A DNA stretch of 38,502 bases, from positions 1 to 38,502 of IMG/VR virus record IMGVR_UViG_3300045988_053169; one strand, 5' to 3'. The DNA comes from a virus. Shown here in pieces: positions 12,990 through 36,349 of the stretch; the stretch's first letter is position 1; every line of letters starts with the position of its first letter. A program made the translations under genes and the position numbers. Under the pieces are notes generated by a model. That model did not search any database. It was not told the origin of the DNA and saw nothing but the letters and a program-made list of their open reading frames with translations.

Positions 12990-14630
12990 TTGGCCGAAAT
13001 TAAGAATTTCCCGAATAATTCGGACGAGTATATCGGCGCGGAATACGTGATGAAATGGCTGCACGGGCGCACCAGCGGCGTTTTTGGCGCAGAAAACAAC
13101 CTCGCGGTGACGCTGGACAGCGGTATGACCGTGAAAGTGTCCGACGGCGTGGGCTGGCTGTCCAACAGCGAGGGTGACGGCTCCGTATTTTGGAATGACA
13201 CCAAGAACACCACCGGCGTAGAGCTGAAGCTCACGGCTGCAATTGCGAACGCCGTGAACCCACGCATTGACCGTGTAGTGGTGACGTGGGACACCGTGGA
13301 CTATGCAGCAAAGCCGCGCATTGAGCTGCTGAAAGGCACTCCGGCAGCGTCTCCGGCGGCGCCTACACTTACAAACAACACGCTCAAGCGCCAGATTTCG
13401 CTTGCGCAGATTTACGTCGCCGCTGCTGCAAGCAAGCTCACCAGCGCAAACATCACGGACGAACGGCTTGACAAGTCCGTGTGCGGCATCGTGACTGACT
13501 GGGTGACAGTGGACACCACCACCATGAACCAGCAGTTCAAGGAATATTTGGCGGCAATCCGCAAAGAATTGAGCGATTTGAACGCCGGTACGGCTACAAT
13601 GCTGAAAGCCACATACGACCCGAAGGGCCGTGCGCAAGACATCTTTGCCTATTCCGACTCTCAGGGCGTGCACGTCTACACCCACCAGAAGGTGGGCACG
13701 GTTCACCGGCTGACCGGCAGCGGCGCAAGTGGCCGCGTTAAACTGACCGCCAACGTGGCGGCGGGCGATACAGTGCAGGTGAACGGCAAAACCGTGCCCG
13801 CCTATGTGGGCACAGAGGCCTTTGCCGATGCACTGGCAGGCGAGGCCCTGAGCGGCCGCTGGCTGAGCTTTGTGTGGGACGGTACACAGGTAAATTTTAA
13901 TGGCGGCGGGGGCTTATCCCTCACAAAACTCGCCCTCGCCACTACCGAAACCGGAGACGTAATTTCTGGGAAAAAGTTTTATAGCGGCGATAAATCGCTT
14001 AAAACTGGGGAGATTTTGCCGCGCAACACTGTCGGGCAAAACGGGGCTGTGGGCGCATCCGCCTCCTTCCCAAGCGTCGCGGTTACGCCAGTAGAACGGG
14101 ATACGCAGGCCTACTTAAACACGGACGGAGTGTCCCGCGTTTTTCTAAAGCCGCCGAAAGGCTACTACAACGGCGAAAGCTATGTGGGCGACAGCTACGC
14201 CAGCGTTGCCAGCGCCATTGGCCTGACGGCGGGAAAGCTGGGCGCGGGCGAAACGGTGCTAGACGTTGCCGGGACTTCCCACGCCATGGCGATGTTTGCG
14301 ACCGTGGGGGACAATCGCTGGAGCGGCGGCAGCCCCAACCGGCTCAAGCTGGCCTACACGGTGGGCGGCACCTCCGGCTTCGGCGGCTGGGGATGCTGGC
14401 TTCCAGCCGGTACATATCGGGCGTGCGGAGCTATCGACGGGTTGAAAGGATGCTATATCGCGGACGCTGGCAATCTGGCCACGCGGATTTATAGCGCGGA
14501 ACGAGAATACGCCAGTAGCGTTTGGGGCGGACAAGGCACGTTTACGCTTAATGGCAGCCAGTGGGTGTCCGTTACCAGCGGAAGCACGAGCTACTCAGAG
14601 GATGCAGGCGTTTGCATTTACCGCGTTTGA
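12990..14630 (+). CDS. Tail fibre / receptor-binding candidate
   Basis: TTG start behind GGGGTGA. 546 aa. N-terminus NFPNNSDEYIGAEYVMKWLHG is common in siphovirus tail structural proteins. Confidence 0.6.
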   Translation: MAEIKNFPNNSDEYIGAEYVMKWLHGRTSGVFGAENNLAVTLDSGMTVKVSDGVGWLSNSEGDGSVFWNDTKNTTGVELKLTAAIANAVNPRIDRVVVTWDTVDYAAKPRIELLKGTPAASPAAPTLTNNTLKRQISLAQIYVAAAASKLTSANITDERLDKSVCGIVTDWVTVDTTTMNQQFKEYLAAIRKELSDLNAGTATMLKATYDPKGRAQDIFAYSDSQGVHVYTHQKVGTVHRLTGSGASGRVKLTANVAAGDTVQVNGKTVPAYVGTEAFADALAGEALSGRWLSFVWDGTQVNFNGGGGLSLTKLALATTETGDVISGKKFYSGDKSLKTGEILPRNTVGQNGAVGASASFPSVAVTPVERDTQAYLNTDGVSRVFLKPPKGYYNGESYVGDSYASVASAIGLTAGKLGAGETVLDVAGTSHAMAMFATVGDNRWSGGSPNRLKLAYTVGGTSGFGGWGCWLPAGTYRACGAIDGLKGCYIADAGNLATRIYSAEREYASSVWGGQGTFTLNGSQWVSVTSGSTSYSEDAGVCIYRV

Positions 14631-20481: not shown

Positions 20482-21615
20482 TTAATTTTGCTCATTTACG
20501 ATATTTTTACGATAATAGTGCGCGTTTAAAGCTCTTGTCGCATCGTCTATGGCCCAAGACTTCGCCTCGGCATACCATTTTTGAGTGGTGGTGATGTCTG
20601 CGTGCCCCATTAGCTCCTTCGCGACCTGCGGGCTTACGTCGCATTGAGTTAGGACGCTGGCGAACTCATGCCGGAGCTGGTGCGCCGTGAAATCTGGGGC
20701 GGGCAAGTGCTTGTAAACGGTTTTGCCGTGCTTGTCCTTTTTCCCCGCGCTGGTCACTCTGCCGCTATCGTGGGTGCAGCCTATCTCCGCGCAGTATCTG
20801 AGCCAAGCACTCACGTACTTGCTGCTTGTCATGGGGGCGTTGCCGCCGAAAATATAATCATCATCGGCCAGGCCGTCAAGCCTCCCTTCAAGCGCTGCGG
20901 CAAGAGGGGCCAAAATCGGCACTACACGGACTGCGCTCGCCGTTTTCGGTGGCTCTATATGCGGTTGGTTTGAGTGCCATACAACGGCCTTTGTGACGTG
21001 GATTTTCCCGCCAGACAAGTCTCGCTTTTGTAACGCCATGATTTCCCCCAGGCGCAGGCCTGCATACATTGCAAAGGCTGCACACAGGCCGAAACCGTCG
21101 GTGTGCGCCTTTACCTTTTCGATTTCCGCGTCTGTAGGTGCATGCCGTTTCGTTTGCGGCAGCCCCTGCGGAAGGCGGATCAAGTCGCACGGGTTGCGGT
21201 CTCCGTCCATGTTGGTACACCAAAATTGATAGACCAGCGAAATTACTGACCGCTGGTTTGCAATTGTCTTGTATGCCTTGCCCTGGGCGGCCATCTGGGA
21301 CAGGCGGCGTGAAATATCCGTCGTTGTAATCTCCTTCATTCCCGCGCCGCTGAACCAGTCTTTTGCCGCATTCACGGCGCGGCGGTATCCGCGCTGTGTG
21401 CCGTATTTCAGCCGTGGCTCCTTGTAGTCCCAAAACTTATCAGCGACTTCTTCAAACGGCGGCCCTTTTTCGTCCCGGGCTGCTGCTTTTTTTATAGCCT
21501 CGTCCATTTTTGCTTGTGCCTCTTTCACGGTGTGGCCGTAAAAGTGCATTTGCTTGCCGTTTATCATGCGTGTGCGCTCTATCAGGCCATCACTTCGCGC
21601 TTTAGGCCTTGCCAT
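20482..21615 (-). CDS. int: Tyrosine integrase
   Basis: ATG at 21615 behind GAGGTGA. 377 aa. Contains AGLRLGEI (Arg), HQLRHEF (H-x-x-R) and GHADITTTQKWY (catalytic Tyr). Confidence 0.9.
   Translation of the reverse strand: MARPKARSDGLIERTRMINGKQMHFYGHTVKEAQAKMDEAIKKAAARDEKGPPFEEVADKFWDYKEPRLKYGTQRGYRRAVNAAKDWFSGAGMKEITTTDISRRLSQMAAQGKAYKTIANQRSVISLVYQFWCTNMDGDRNPCDLIRLPQGLPQTKRHAPTDAEIEKVKAHTDGFGLCAAFAMYAGLRLGEIMALQKRDLSGGKIHVTKAVVWHSNQPHIEPPKTASAVRVVPILAPLAAALEGRLDGLADDDYIFGGNAPMTSSKYVSAWLRYCAEIGCTHDSGRVTSAGKKDKHGKTVYKHLPAPDFTAHQLRHEFASVLTQCDVSPQVAKELMGHADITTTQKWYAEAKSWAIDDATRALNAHYYRKNIVNEQN
20497..20514 (+). repeat. Arm-type repeat, copy 3 (inside the 3' end of int)
   Basis: Exact 18-mer on the other side of the core. 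Confidence 0.6.
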
Positions 21616-21620
21616 GATCT

Positions 21621-22193
21621 TCACCTCGCATATTCGTTGCGGCCCAGATGAGCCGCGCTTTTCCCGGCGTTGTAAGCATTTTTCAGATTCTCCAGGCACG
21701 GCGGGGCCGTCTCTGGCTCCACCAGTTCGCCTGTGCCTTCCTCGAGGGTGTAGTTGTCCAGTATCAGCCCGCACACTGCGGCCCGGCTGCGCATGGTGCA
21801 GTGCGCATTTGCCACATACTCGTCAAGCATGGAGGGCCAGTCGCTCCCGTGCGCGCCGAAGATTAAAAAGGCCAGCTTGTCCACCTCGCCCGGCGGGCAG
21901 TCCGCAAGGTACTTAAAAAGCCCGTTGCGCCGCTGCTCCACATCTGGGTGGCTGCCCTCAAAATCTGCGTACAGTTCCGGATGTATCAGCCGCAGGATGT
22001 CCCGGAAGCAGTTCATGCCCAGCACGCGATACCACATAACAAATTCGTTCAAGTTCGGCGTGGACGTGCCTTTTTCCCAGTTTCGCACGGTCTGCTTGCT
22101 CTTTCCGAGCATTTCCGCGATTTTTTCCTGGCTCAATCCGGCTTTTGTTCGCGCATTGTACAACAAATCTGCAATTCTTCTATCATTGTTCAC
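21621..22193 (-). CDS. XRE-family HTH regulator with an uncharacterised C-terminal domain, co-oriented with int and 5 nt upstream of it
   Basis: LSQEKIAEMLGKSKQTVRNWEKG is an HTH motif. 190 aa. Confidence 0.8.
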   Translation of the reverse strand: MNNDRRIADLLYNARTKAGLSQEKIAEMLGKSKQTVRNWEKGTSTPNLNEFVMWYRVLGMNCFRDILRLIHPELYADFEGSHPDVEQRRNGLFKYLADCPPGEVDKLAFLIFGAHGSDWPSMLDEYVANAHCTMRSRAAVCGLILDNYTLEEGTGELVEPETAPPCLENLKNAYNAGKSAAHLGRNEYAR

Positions 22194-22553
22194 AAAAACA
22201 CCTCCTTCTCAAATATCTTGTGGGTTAAAAAACATCACTTTTCGGCGTCATTTAGTACGTTTTGCTTTCTTTTTGTGACAACGTGTTAGTGTTATCATAT
22301 ACGCGAAGGATTGGTAAAAAGATGCCTGCAGGCCATTTTCCGACCGGCTTTTTACCAGCACGATGCTACTGTATAAGCACGAGGTACGCACTATGCACGG
22401 ACTACCAAGGCCCGCAAAGTCACATCATGGGCGGAAGAGACAAACCGGTGGAAAACGCACATACAAAGGACGGGCAGCCACACCACTGCGTAGCTGCCCG
22501 ATCACCTGACAGCCCTTGTCATCCGGCGGGGCAGCAGAAAGGGGAAATGCGTA

Positions 22554-22691
22554 ATGACACAAAACAAAAGCCAAGACATTGATTATTTGCGAAAATTAGC
22601 ATTAAAATGCTTAAAGCGGCTCTCCCCCAAAGAAGCTATTGATTTGTACATAGATATAAATAATAGGGTGCAAGATGAGGGGCAAAATTGA
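22554..22691 (+). CDS. Possible 45-aa ORF (not in the ORF track)
   Basis: AAGGGG lies 9 nt upstream. MTQNKSQDIDYLRKLALKCLKRLSPKEAIDLYIDINNRVQDEGQN is helical-looking. It converges on the repressor gene stop. Confidence 0.3.
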   Translation: MTQNKSQDIDYLRKLALKCLKRLSPKEAIDLYIDINNRVQDEGQN

Positions 22692-22694
22692 TTT

Positions 22695-23126
22695 TCATTT
22701 TTTCACCAGCTTTGCGGATGCAGCCGCAATGAATTGTATAAGCTCTTCATCTGTAGCTTCTGTTTTAATCCATTTTTCCACATCATCTTTAGTAAGCTCA
22801 TCAGCCTTTTTGGCTGGTGAGCTTTTTTCTTGCATTTTTTTAGCCAGTGCCACAGCCGCAGCAAGCGTTTTTACATCTTCCGGCACATCTTTGTACTGAT
22901 CGTCAACCGTTTGGCTGTCATCGCCTTTTAAATATTGTACCGTTATCGGCCTGCCGAGCTTTTCGGTAAAGTATGAGGCTAAAATTTCAAGATTTATGTC
23001 TGTGCATCCGCCACCTTTCTTCCATCGAGACACTGTCGGCTTGGAAAAACCGGCATCAACCGCAATTTGAGATGGTGAACTTCCAAGCTCTTTGCACAGT
23101 TTTACATAAGCATTATAAAAATTCAT
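22695..23126 (-). CDS. CI-like repressor (XRE HTH)
   Basis: SPSQIAVDAGFSKPTVSRWKKG is an HTH motif. 143 aa. Divergent from the cro-like gene. Lies in a lower-GC module. Confidence 0.75.
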   Translation of the reverse strand: MNFYNAYVKLCKELGSSPSQIAVDAGFSKPTVSRWKKGGGCTDINLEILASYFTEKLGRPITVQYLKGDDSQTVDDQYKDVPEDVKTLAAAVALAKKMQEKSSPAKKADELTKDDVEKWIKTEATDEELIQFIAAASAKLVKK

Positions 23127-23158
23127 AATTTCACACCTCTGCTTCTGTGCAAGTTGCT

Positions 23159-23324
23159 AAAGTTTACAAAATTACCAGAAAATGCTTTACAGTAAACGCA
23201 AACCTTGCTATACTGTACTTGTTGGTTACGAAAGTTTACCAAGTAAACAATCTGAGGTATAGCAAAGCCAGGCAACTTGTTATAGATATTCTGCAATTTC
23301 ACTATAACACAGTTAGTAAACTTT
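23159..23324. promoter_or_regulatory. Operator-like repeat cluster (AAAGTTTAC / GTAAAC half-sites)
   Basis: AAAGTTTAC occurs at 23159..23167 and 23231..23239, and inverted at 23316..23324. Palindrome GTTTAC-caa-GTAAAC at 23234..23248. An extra GTAAAC at 23192..23197. Confidence 0.45.
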
Positions 23325-23352
23325 TGCAACCGCAAAGCGACTACAGCGGCAA

Positions 23353-23388
23353 TAAAAAAGCTATCTACTGTCCGTTAGTAGATAGCTT
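23353..23388 (-). terminator. Intrinsic terminator acting on leftward transcription
   Basis: Perfect 12-bp stem 23358..23369 / 23377..23388 with a 7-nt loop. A6 on the plus strand gives U6 on the minus-strand RNA. Confidence 0.7.
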
Positions 23389-23653
23389 TATCCCAAAGTT
23401 TTTTACCAGAACAAGCTTGCAACAGAGAAACCGACCAAGGTTCTTTATGATCGAGCAAGCACACGATGCCTTGTGTGATGCAAATTCTCTGTTTGCAAAA
23501 CGGACTTGCAATTCTTTGGGCTTGCCGTAACCTTTGGCAGTTTTGGGACTGCCGTATAGCCATACGCGTTACGCAATTTCTTTAGTCTGGAACGGGCATA
23601 ATCAAAAGTTTGGTCAAGGCCGACCTCACTCCCTTTCTGCCATATCTATGGCA
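23353..23653 (-). ncRNA. Predicted non-coding transcript of about 300 nt (or attenuated leader) between the promoter and terminator above
   Basis: Bounded by a promoter and a terminator. No ORF with an SD. Contains several hairpins, two of them with complementary 7-nt loops. Confidence 0.4.
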
Positions 23654-23659
23654 ATCCAG

Positions 23660-23688
23660 ATTATATCAGACATTGCCGCTGTAGTCAA
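23660..23688 (-). promoter_or_regulatory. Near-consensus sigma-70 promoter, leftward
   Basis: The minus strand reads TTGACT (23688..23683), a 17-nt spacer, then TATAAT (23665..23660). Confidence 0.6.
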
Positions 23689-23715
23689 ATTTTTTTACAG
23701 ATTGGGGGTGGAAGA

Positions 23716-23928
23716 ATGCCTGAAAAATGGACAGGCCAGCTAATCGGGCGGATGCACAACTACAGTGTAACCTATGACGATTTGAGCAAAAAAATGGGAA
23801 TCACCAAAGGCTACATCAGCCAAATACTGAATTGCTATCGCCGCCCACCGAATGCTCAGCAGCGGTTCGAAGCCGCCGTGAACGAGATTATTGTTGAACG
23901 GCTTGAACAGAGCGAGAAAGGAGAATGA
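23716..23928 (+). CDS. Cro-like HTH protein
   Basis: GGGGGTGGA RBS. KKMGITKGYISQILN is an HTH motif. 70 aa. First gene of the rightward operon. Confidence 0.7.
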   Translation: MPEKWTGQLIGRMHNYSVTYDDLSKKMGITKGYISQILNCYRRPPNAQQRFEAAVNEIIVERLEQSEKGE

Positions 23929-24665
23929 AATATATGGGAGATTTGAAAATCTGGGAGAATCCCGAATTCGGCACGCTGCGCGTGATCGAGCAGGACGGCG
24001 AGCCTTGGATGGTTGGTAAAGATGTGGCGCAGGCGCTGGGGTACAAGGATACAGTGAATGCCTTGAAATCCCATGTTGACGATGAAGATAAAGATAGGTG
24101 GCAAATCACCACCCAGTTTGGATCAAAAGAAACGGTCATCATCAACGAATCCGGCCTGTACAGCTTGGTACTGTTCAGCAAACTTCCCACCGCCAAGAAA
24201 TTTAAGCGCTGGGTCACCAGCGAGGTGCTGCCGAGCATCCGCAAATCCGGCGGGTATATCGCCGGGCAGGATCAGCTTACCCCCGAAGAGCTGATGGCGA
24301 AGGCCCTGCAAGTGGCAAACAAGACACTGGCCGAGAGGGAAGCCCGCATTTCCGCGCTGACCGTGCAGAACACCATCATGGCCCCGAAGGCCGAATACTT
24401 TGACGAGCTGGTTGACCGCAACACGCTCACCAGCTTCCGGGATACGGCCAAAGAGCTTGGCATTAAGCCCAAGGCTTTTGTGGAGTGGCTGCTAGATAAG
24501 AAATTTATCTTCCGCGACCAGAAGGGCAAGCTGATGCCCCGCGAAGGCAAGGGCGACGGCCTGTTTGAGGTAAAGGAAGCCAAGAACGACAAGACCCAGT
24601 GGAGCGGAGTTCAGACGCTTGTAACCCCGAAGGGCCGGGAAACATTCCGGCTGCTCTACTTATAA
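23925..24665 (+). CDS. Antirepressor (BRO-N domain plus phage antirepressor C-terminal domain)
   Basis: FGTLRVIEQDGEPWMVGKDVAQALGY...INESGLYSLVLFSKLPTAKKFKRWVTSEVLPSIRKSG is a classic BRO-N sequence. Confidence 0.85.
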   Translation: MKYMGDLKIWENPEFGTLRVIEQDGEPWMVGKDVAQALGYKDTVNALKSHVDDEDKDRWQITTQFGSKETVIINESGLYSLVLFSKLPTAKKFKRWVTSEVLPSIRKSGGYIAGQDQLTPEELMAKALQVANKTLAEREARISALTVQNTIMAPKAEYFDELVDRNTLTSFRDTAKELGIKPKAFVEWLLDKKFIFRDQKGKLMPREGKGDGLFEVKEAKNDKTQWSGVQTLVTPKGRETFRLLYL

Positions 24666-24879: not shown

Positions 24880-25098
24880 ATGAACCGGCTGCGGGAACTG
24901 CGGGAAAACGCGGGGTACAGCCAGTGCAGCCTTGCGGCCCGGCTGGGGCTTACCCCGCCCACCATCAACCGCTGGGAGCGCGGCAGAGCTTGCCCCCGAC
25001 TGCAAAACCTTAAAAAGCTGGCCGACCTGTACGGGGTCAGCGTCCGCGACCTGAAGGAGGCGGTGCATTATGGCGAGGGAGCGGGAAGGTTACCGTGA
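24880..25098 (+). CDS. XRE-family HTH protein
   Basis: YSQCSLAARLGLTPPTINRWERG is an HTH motif. Confidence 0.7.
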   Translation: MNRLRELRENAGYSQCSLAARLGLTPPTINRWERGRACPRLQNLKKLADLYGVSVRDLKEAVHYGEGAGRLP

Positions 25099-36095: not shown

Positions 36096-36171
36096 GCCGT
36101 CATAGCTCAGTTGGCAGAGCGGCTGCCTTGTAAGCAGCAGGCCGAGGGTTCGAGACCTTCTGACGGCTCCA
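36096..36171 (+). tRNA. tRNA-Thr (anticodon UGU) with encoded CCA
   Basis: Folded by hand. Acceptor GCCGTCA/TGACGGC, D arm GCTC-AGTTGGCA-GAGC, anticodon arm GCTGC-CTTGTAA-GCAGC, T arm GAGGG-TTCGAGA-CCTTC. Confidence 0.9.
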
Positions 36172-36275: not shown

Positions 36276-36349
36276 TGGGCTGTAGCCAAACGGCAAGGCA
36301 CGGGACTTTGACTCCCGCATTGCAGGTTCGACCCCTGCCAGCCCAACCA
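36276..36349 (+). tRNA. tRNA-Gln (anticodon UUG) with encoded CCA
   Basis: Folded by hand. Acceptor TGGGCTG/CAGCCCA, 3-bp D stem GCC/GGC, anticodon arm CGGGA-CTTTGAC-TCCCG, T arm GCAGG-TTCGACC-CCTGC. Confidence 0.9.

Follow-up and report, generated by a model that had tools for sequence, protein, structure and literature searches.

A FuFi-1 RNA unit in the repressor–Cro interval of a prophage

The stretch analyzed here, positions 1 to 38,502 of IMG/VR virus record IMGVR_UViG_3300045988_053169, carries between its CI-like repressor gene and its cro-like gene an added instance of an already described RNA family, FuFi-1. We call the whole stretch of 38,502 nucleotides (nt) the window. The original prediction, made from the letters alone, had placed a free-standing promoter-to-terminator RNA unit in this CI/Cro region and named an Rfam search as one way of checking it. 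That search returned RF02986, FuFi-1 RNA, at 23574-23355 on the minus strand with 118.6 bits (E = 2e-25), about twice the gathering score of 59.6 bits and spanning model positions 1-175 of 175; no other Rfam family reached its gathering score within the unit. A promoter and a terminator conserved among the relatives support the free-standing unit. Across loci, FuFi-1 sits at the edge of Clostridia prophage immunity switches and faces a same-strand gene for a Cro/CI-type repressor, and the window itself is a prophage, with integrase, CI-like, cro-like, antirepressor and helix-turn-helix (HTH) genes.

Weinberg et al. 2017 (PMC5737381) introduced FuFi-1 as an orphan motif for which the main text proposes no function. 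The same main text judges a "sophisticated biochemical function" likely for the motif, finds motifs of this type seldom in potential 5′ untranslated regions (UTRs) and reports gene associations for three motifs, FuFi-1 not being among them. A literature search beyond that study found no other paper naming FuFi-1 and, as far as checked, the published main text mentions neither the switch context nor the enlarged architecture nor the bracketing repeat described below. FuFi-1 is among the few bacterial motifs so conserved and complex that a demanding biochemical function suggests itself, and its placement in the repressor/Cro switch of human-gut and rumen Clostridia phages makes the function of this orphan testable. 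The question raised is whether removing or misfolding the RNA alters prophage induction or lysogenisation.

Transcription unit and fold

Homologues were collected by scanning IMG/VR (78 stretches) and GTDB genomes (91 stretches, part of them chance matches) with the conserved pattern of stem P2, and by a third scan with the leader motif (at least 120 stretches). With an nhmmer profile built from the homologue alignment, the first sets yielded about 100 FuFi-1 cores, and all sets together at least about 150. An initial collection pattern, GGTAAANAANTTTGGGA, was dropped as unspecific, most of its 120 matches being coding sequence. The host range expected for the family is Firmicutes/Fusobacteria. 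The genuine GTDB matches, from both isolates and metagenome-assembled genomes (MAGs), all fell in Clostridia, namely Lachnospiraceae, Oscillospiraceae, Eubacterium, Ruminococcus and Jingyaoa shaoxingensis NSJ-46 (locus L240, contig NZ_JACRSZ010000022.1). A blastn search of GenBank phages with the window unit and one long-form relative gave no match.

The unit encodes a structured RNA of the FuFi-1 class, about 300 nt long, that is predicted to run from ~23653 to ~23354 on the minus strand under a strong promoter of its own. Its parts, including an open reading frame (ORF) and a Shine–Dalgarno (SD)-like element in the leader, are as follows.

23660..23688, minus strand: RNA promoter, with a TG-extended -10 TGATATAAT at 23668-23660 and a predicted start at ~23653
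23638..23653, minus strand: 5′-terminal hairpin UGCCAUAGAUAUGGCA, with which the transcript is predicted to begin
23582..23636, minus strand: conserved 5′ leader outside the Rfam model, with SD-like AAAGGGAG at 23636-23629, near-invariant UUGACCAAACUUUUGA at 23617-23602 and an 11-codon NUG ORF
23586..23590, minus strand: 5′ strand of P0, CCAGA, pairing with UCUGG at 23410-23406
23355..23574, minus strand: FuFi-1 core (RF02986 match) with stems P1, P2, P3, P3a and P3b, linker and terminator
23573-23568/23531-23526, minus strand: P1, from the alignment to the FuFi-1 model, as are the next four stems
23553-23536, minus strand: P2 hairpin
23524-23520/23416-23412, minus strand: P3
23511-23493, minus strand: P3a hairpin, UUGCAA-GUCCGUU-UUGCAA
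23492-23485/23429-23422, minus strand: P3b, carrying a 55-nt insert in the window copy
23542..23549, minus strand: 5′ strand of pseudoknot 1, the P2 apical loop GUCCCAAA, with its partner UUUGGGAU at 23397-23390
23499..23505, minus strand: 5′ strand of pseudoknot 2, the P3a loop GUCCGUU, with its partner, the terminator loop AACGGAC, at 23376-23370
23390..23410, minus strand: conserved linker UCUGG-UAAAAAAC-UUUGGGAU, holding the 3′ strands of P0 (23410-23406) and pseudoknot 1 (23397-23390)
23354..23389, minus strand: intrinsic terminator, a perfect 13-base-pair (bp) stem (23357-23369/23377-23389) with loop AACGGAC at 23376-23370, then U6

The leftward promoter that had been claimed can be read directly in the sequence: TTGACT (23688-23683), a 17-nt spacer and TATAAT (23665-23660) preceded by TG. 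At 11/12 plus TG it is the top sigma-70 match within 22400-24200. Among 92 unique homologous upstream regions, the -10 of the best promoter ends 37-43 nt ahead of the conserved NUG in 82, and the mean promoter score of the homologues is 10.4/13, against 7.6 for shuffles. A short 5′ hairpin occupies the equivalent place in homologues with differing sequences, such as GCCC-GUUA-GGGC and AUGCC-CUUA-GGCAU. At the other end, the hairpin first noted as 12 bp followed by six U is present and in fact has a 13-bp stem (23357-23369/23377-23389), giving the window copy the 3′ Rho-independent terminator typical of FuFi-1. Read rightward, the stem is followed by UUUA only, and the terminator is predicted to be weak in that direction. 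The predicted 301-nt transcript out-folds all 100 of its shuffles (folding z = -3.7).

Aligned to the model, the window copy shows the FuFi-1 architecture: P1 encloses P2 with its CCAAAAC loop, P3, P3a and P3b form a three-way junction, and the linker reads GGUAAA-AA-UUUGG. The model's invariant columns, as found in the window copy, are common to 33 homologues. Minimum-free-energy folding of the single window sequence did not reproduce this comparative structure, and the structural claims therefore rest on covariation. For pseudoknot 1 the compensatory variants are CCAAA:UUUGG, CCAGA:UCUGG (24 loci), CUAAA:UUUAG, UCAAG:CUUGA and CCCAAAG:CUUUGGG. A pairing of the leader's CCAAAC with the linker UUUGG was ruled out, the leader being unchanged where linker and P2 loop change together (L330, L288).

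The complementarity between the terminator loop and the loop of a second hairpin, pointed out at the outset as a possible kissing pair, proved to be a conserved pseudoknot. In 61 of 65 unique homologues the terminator and P3a loops can pair throughout (6-7 bp), and 27 distinct terminator loop sequences occur among them; among non-cognate combinations of P3a and terminator loops, 279 of 3954 are fully complementary. The second hairpin had been placed 10 nt off, at 23483-23501 instead of 23493-23511. Among the further hairpins then listed, that at 23538-23555 is P2, which actually lies at 23536-23553, and the remainder fall in the variable P3b insert. Three viral contigs (L129, L141, L162) have mismatched P3a and terminator loops, of two loop types that are matched in their close relatives L121 and L123. 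These three look like natural recombinants without the kissing interaction or assembly chimeras. Overall, the covariation indicates that the terminator hairpin forms part of the fold, with its loop kissing P3a and the preceding linker pairing with the P2 loop.

The window unit reaches ~80 nt further 5′ than the Rfam model and adds to it the 5′ hairpin, the SD-like element, the invariant leader motif and P0. This last, an outer helix joining leader and linker, covaries as CCAGA/UCUGG, CCCGG/CCGGG, CCCUU/AAGGG, CUCUU/AAGAG and CCCUUGAU/GUCAAGGG. In most relatives an extra domain, ~130 nt long and containing three covarying helices, separates the leader from P1, for example L137:3550-3819 and L123:4431-4697 (both minus strand); the window is a short form without it. 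An Rfam search on this upstream 5′ domain gave nothing except FuFi-1. As the ~130-nt domain lies outside any Rfam family, the FuFi-1 model appears to stop short of a larger RNA, covering only its 3′ two-thirds. The omission of the 5′ hairpin, invariant leader, P0 and ~130-nt domain from the model matters for structural and biochemical work on the class.

Place in the immunity switch and possible roles

The 589-bp gap between the CI and cro genes given in the original prediction is present (23127-23715). The genes around it and the candidate promoters within it are these.

22695..23126, minus strand: CI-like repressor gene, 143 amino acids (aa), lying 227 nt downstream of the RNA and sharing its strand
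23716-23928, plus strand: cro-like gene, 70 aa, divergent from the RNA's promoter
23925-24665, plus strand: Bro-N/KilAC antirepressor gene, divergent from the RNA's promoter
20482-21774: tyrosine integrase gene of the window
21621-22193, minus strand: XRE HTH_3 gene, 190 aa, between the integrase and CI-like genes
24880-25098, plus strand: HTH_3 gene, 72 aa, downstream of the antirepressor gene
23186..23214, plus strand: candidate rightward (lytic) promoter, TTTACA, 17-nt spacer, TATACT, TG-extended
23301..23329, minus strand: candidate repressor-gene promoter, TTGCAA, 17-nt spacer, TATAGT, TG-extended, downstream of the RNA terminator

The direct Pfam HTH signal of the window's CI-like protein is weak. 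By BLAST it belongs to a cluster of 65 neighbor proteins, 62 of which are encoded downstream of FuFi-1 on the same strand. The 45 unique downstream proteins include 21 matching HTH_26, 20 matching HTH_3 and 5 matching Phage_CI_repr. A same-strand ORF of at least 90 aa lies within 700 nt downstream in 59 of the 63 unique loci with enough flank, usually coding for an HTH protein of Cro/CI type, and the distances from FuFi-1 to cI are 120-400 nt. Other neighbors across loci are Bro-N/KilAC or Rha antirepressors, DUF739/HTH_26 cro-like genes and an ImmA-like peptidase.

Using a crude ORF caller, we distinguished two layouts. Type I, which includes the window, has a divergent cro-like gene a few bases past the RNA's -35, with operators and promoters between the terminator and cI. 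In type II a small cro-like gene of the DUF739/HTH_26 kind separates the terminator from cI and ends at the terminator, which is more symmetric in this layout. Two extra HTH_3 genes flank the window's switch, and the maintenance repressor may be the product of any of the candidates. The prophage also has two tRNA genes at 36096-36168 and 36276-36346 on the plus strand. The equivalent region of the close relative L054 gave just-above-threshold Rfam matches to abiF RNA (13403-13439), and L054 also has a type II hammerhead at 1255-1318.

Operator-like repeats had been claimed left of the terminator, and they are present at three sites (23153-23170, 23224-23242 and 23313-23331). A rightward transcript starting from this operator region had been expected to be antisense to the whole RNA, and the geometry of the window bears this out, with a rightward promoter predicted at 23186-23214. 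A sigma-70 scan of 22400-24200 found no promoter directly upstream of cro. With the only credible rightward promoter beyond the terminator and a cro gene without its own, transcripts of cro and the antirepressor gene would therefore cross the unit in antisense. Among the 36 unique gaps between terminator and cI in type I loci, a promoter scoring at least 10/13 is found in the cI direction in 26 and in the opposite direction in 24 (shuffle mean 8.3). The predicted lytic and repressor promoters of the window stand face-to-face with transcripts overlapping by ~70 nt, and their spacing is alike in L080 and L023. Of the three roles first proposed for the RNA (cis-antisense regulator, attenuated leader of the repressor gene, free-standing lysogeny RNA), this geometry favours the first for the window, while the RNA's constant same-strand place upstream of cI keeps the second alive.

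We tentatively prefer, as a possibility somewhat short of probable, that in this window FuFi-1 RNA acts as a cis lock on the lytic operon through collision and sense–antisense pairing. The RNA would be made in the lysogen, in the repressor direction. Rightward transcripts from ~23221 would then run head-on into the RNA's strong promoter before reaching cro and the antirepressor gene, and the leader of these genes would carry ~300 nt complementary to an abundant FuFi-1 RNA. Polymerase collision and sense–antisense pairing together would make FuFi-1 a second lock on the lytic operon, and the RNA's compact knotted fold would stabilise it and probably offer a further partner a surface to bind.

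Several points weigh against this reading. A pure antisense role leaves it unexplained that sequence and both pseudoknots have been kept in phages whose cro and antirepressor genes are unrelated. At type II loci the RNA is convergent with cro and does not lie within the cro leader. Two loci in Acetatifactor/Lachnospiraceae MAGs, L225 (by rplM, for ribosomal protein L13) and L200 (by a phospholipase-D-family, or PLD, gene), are not obviously prophage; these units, with those genes as neighbors in place of a CI-like gene, may be prophage remnants or non-phage copies. The promoter and transcript ends are predictions at all FuFi-1 loci. Finally, the main text of Weinberg et al. 2017 (PMC5737381) reports that no self-cleavage of FuFi-1 was found and offers no function. 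Because the cis lock leaves the conserved fold unexplained, an additional partner, be it a protein, a ligand or the ribosome, is likely.

Such a partner is central to a second explanation, which we regard as possible though on the doubtful side: a trans-acting structured RNA that binds a host or phage protein or a small molecule, as a decoy, scaffold or anti-defence element, and lies near cI as a co-inherited module expressed in lysogeny. A multistem junction with two pseudoknots and invariant unpaired nucleotides would suit this role, as would the stable hairpin at the 5′ end and the terminator. Even in loci with changed pseudoknots the leader motif UGACCAAACUUUUGA stays the same, as expected of a recognition site or seed, and the "sophisticated biochemical function" class of Weinberg et al. 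2017 (PMC5737381), as its main text has it, points the same way. However, no partner is known, the window holds no complementary target elsewhere (near-matches to the leader motif are at chance level), and a trans role would not require the strict synteny and orientation relative to cI.

That synteny speaks for a third explanation, which we consider rather unlikely on balance. The unit would be an attenuated leader or P_RE-like transcript for the repressor, whose fold sets the passage of polymerase at the terminator. Read-through would cross the operators into cI, and at type II loci would also run antisense through cro; the sensor would be the fold or ribosome loading. The RNA is on the same strand as, and upstream of, the CI-like gene in 62 of 65 clustered cases, with only 120-400 nt to cI, and its position is equivalent to that of lambda P_RE. 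It has a conserved SD-like element and NUG at its 5′ end. The U-tracts that follow the hairpin are poor in several lineages (the L121/L123 group has CUUAUGUUU and L151 has GUACUUUCC, for instance), which makes read-through plausible there. On the other hand, two pseudoknots seem to lock the terminator hairpin into the fold, so that it would not compete with an antiterminator, and a search by eye in a few sequences found no conserved alternative pairing for the terminator stem. The window's unit lies 227 nt upstream of cI on the same strand with a promoter-like site between them, so that cI has such a site of its own past the terminator, and at other loci a reverse-strand gene intervenes. The rarity of FuFi-1 in potential 5′ UTRs, as judged in the main text of Weinberg et al. 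2017 (PMC5737381), also argues against a leader.

Leader, micro-ORF and flanking repeat

Nothing with an SD had been thought to fill the interval between promoter and terminator. The claim about the 62-codon ORF at 23375-23563, that it was not credible, was right: as a gene it is ruled out, its frame being lost after an indel in L054 and L080 and ending after 2 codons in L023. A conserved SD-like element and an 11-codon NUG ORF do exist in the interval, and here it is the pattern of variation that favours selection on RNA. This micro-ORF, MTKLLIMPVPD with a TTG start (23617-23582, minus strand), is a family-wide conserved feature. The order across loci is promoter, short hairpin, SD-like AAGGAG and near-invariant UUGACCAAACUUUUGA, and the leader motif is followed by a FuFi-1 core in 132 of 142 instances among the matches listed (viral contigs and earlier loci). 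At L334, from 10703 onward on the plus strand, the leader motif TTGACCAAACTTTTGA..TTGCC occurs without a FuFi-1 core; after it come a small hairpin, an SD and an ORF that codes for protein (MLDNTQIKILTLIKSNGG...).

The real product could be the micro-protein, with the structured RNA as its 3′ UTR. An SD-like AAGGAG/GGAGG stands 6-11 nt, a spacing suited to translation, ahead of an NUG that is TTG, ATG or GTG and in one case CTG, and the L191/L159 variant holds frame and length through six nucleotide changes. We think this very improbable. A coding sequence should show mainly synonymous substitutions with frame and length kept; here the substitutions fall mostly at codon positions 1 and 2, and none is of synonymous type (CTT changes to TTT, ATT and TGT, never to CTC, CTA or CTG). 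Length ranges from 10 to 36 codons, and L192 carries a frameshift. The transitions between pyrimidines in GYUCYC fit base pairing with G, codons 9-10 lie in or beside P0, and in the long forms variation of the stop among TAA, TGA and TAG is compensated on the opposite strand of a helix. Given the lack of synonymous variants, the pairing-compatible C/U changes, the overlap with P0 and the variable ORF length, we conclude that the constraint on the leader most probably acts at the nucleotide level and not on a peptide. Ribosome loading on the SD-like/NUG leader is possible.

The unit is also bracketed by a short inverted repeat.

23339..23353: left arm of the inverted repeat (GACTACAGCGGCAAT), perfect over 15 nt, directly after the terminator
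23672..23686: right arm, overlapping the -35 hexamer and spacer of the RNA promoter

The window contains no additional close copy of this 15-nt repeat. An equivalent repeat of 12-30 nt, with lineage-specific sequence, lies at the same two boundaries in about half (~30) of 62 unique loci. Three accounts of it were tried and rejected. As an antisense promoter it has no -10 at the correct spacing, and as an inverton it would need loci in the opposite orientation, of which there were none. As an RNA helix in the lytic transcript, its mismatches between arms are mostly transitions, and a hand count after removing shared events gave ~8 G·U-compatible in antisense, 3 in sense and 5 transversions, a slight lean toward a helix in the rightward transcript that is not significant. 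The repeat may serve as an RNA clamp in the lytic leader, provide paired sites for proteins or be a scar of recombination. That the repeat marks the unit off as a mobile or invertible cassette, whose inversion would set the strong terminator against the cro transcript, we find hardly credible: the perfect 15-nt match (~2e-4 expected by chance per 650 nt, by our estimate), the equivalent repeats at both boundaries in about half of the relatives and a tyrosine recombinase gene 2 kb away would fit it, but repeat-bearing loci with enough flank all share one orientation relative to the CI-like gene, the repeats vary by lineage around a conserved interior, the opposite of typical terminal repeats, and half of the family has no repeat.

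A broader proposal, speculative and improbable as a joint claim, is that FuFi-1 with its unmodelled leader and 5′ domain is the sensor-effector of the lysis–lysogeny switch in many gut Clostridia prophages, with the lineage-specific inverted repeat as an RNA clamp insulating the lytic leader from it. The knotted RNA would sense a ligand, a protein or ribosome loading and would balance the repressor against cro and the antirepressor.

Comparison with known systems

The window copy is like the Rfam motif in its P1-P2-P3 junction, its conserved loop and linker nucleotides and its 3′ terminator, and differs by the 55-nt P3b insert and the ~80-nt 5′ extension. According to the main text of Weinberg et al. 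2017 (PMC5737381), three further motifs resemble FuFi-1 in having complex folds with an intrinsic terminator, lying rarely in 5′ UTRs and being of unknown function. Those three were published there with specific neighboring protein domains; the neighbor found here for FuFi-1 is a Cro/CI-type HTH repressor gene.

Coliphages 186 and P2 have a convergent-promoter switch, as predicted in the window, whereas the lambda arrangement is back-to-back. P22 sar and lambda oop/P_RE are, like FuFi-1, leftward transcripts in the repressor direction with their own promoter over an early lytic transcript, a geometry that is predicted here: the RNA's promoter and terminator are present and conserved, and the overlapping lytic transcript follows from a predicted promoter only. 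The place of the unit relative to cro and cI recalls that of lambda P_RE and oop. The sar and oop RNAs are short, at 69-77 nt; each is a simple hairpin and lacks conserved tertiary structure. FuFi-1, by contrast, is ~300-400 nt long, doubly pseudoknotted and conserved across phages with unrelated targets, and has no sequence or Rfam relationship to either. A multistem RNA of ~300 nt with two covarying pseudoknots is not a simple hairpin constrained only by its target, and the doubly pseudoknotted fold and invariant unpaired nucleotides, as read from the alignment, would not be needed by a simple sar-like antisense RNA.

The C4 RNAs of P1/P7 and the CI RNA of P4 share with FuFi-1 a place in the immunity region, variable complementary loops on a kept scaffold and an antirepressor in the controlled operon. 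The variable loops of C4 and CI pair with sites in the target mRNA and thereby set heteroimmunity, and C4 is processed from an operon leader. The two variable loops of FuFi-1 instead pair within one RNA, which has its own predicted promoter and terminator. The C4 covariance model gave no match at its gathering threshold over the window, nor at E values up to 1 in 23100-23750. The aimX RNA of the arbitrium system, governed by AimR and the AimP peptide, is likewise a non-coding RNA in a temperate-phage decision module. This likeness is by analogy only: the switch described here has no aimR- or aimP-like genes, and FuFi-1 shares neither structure nor sequence with aimX.

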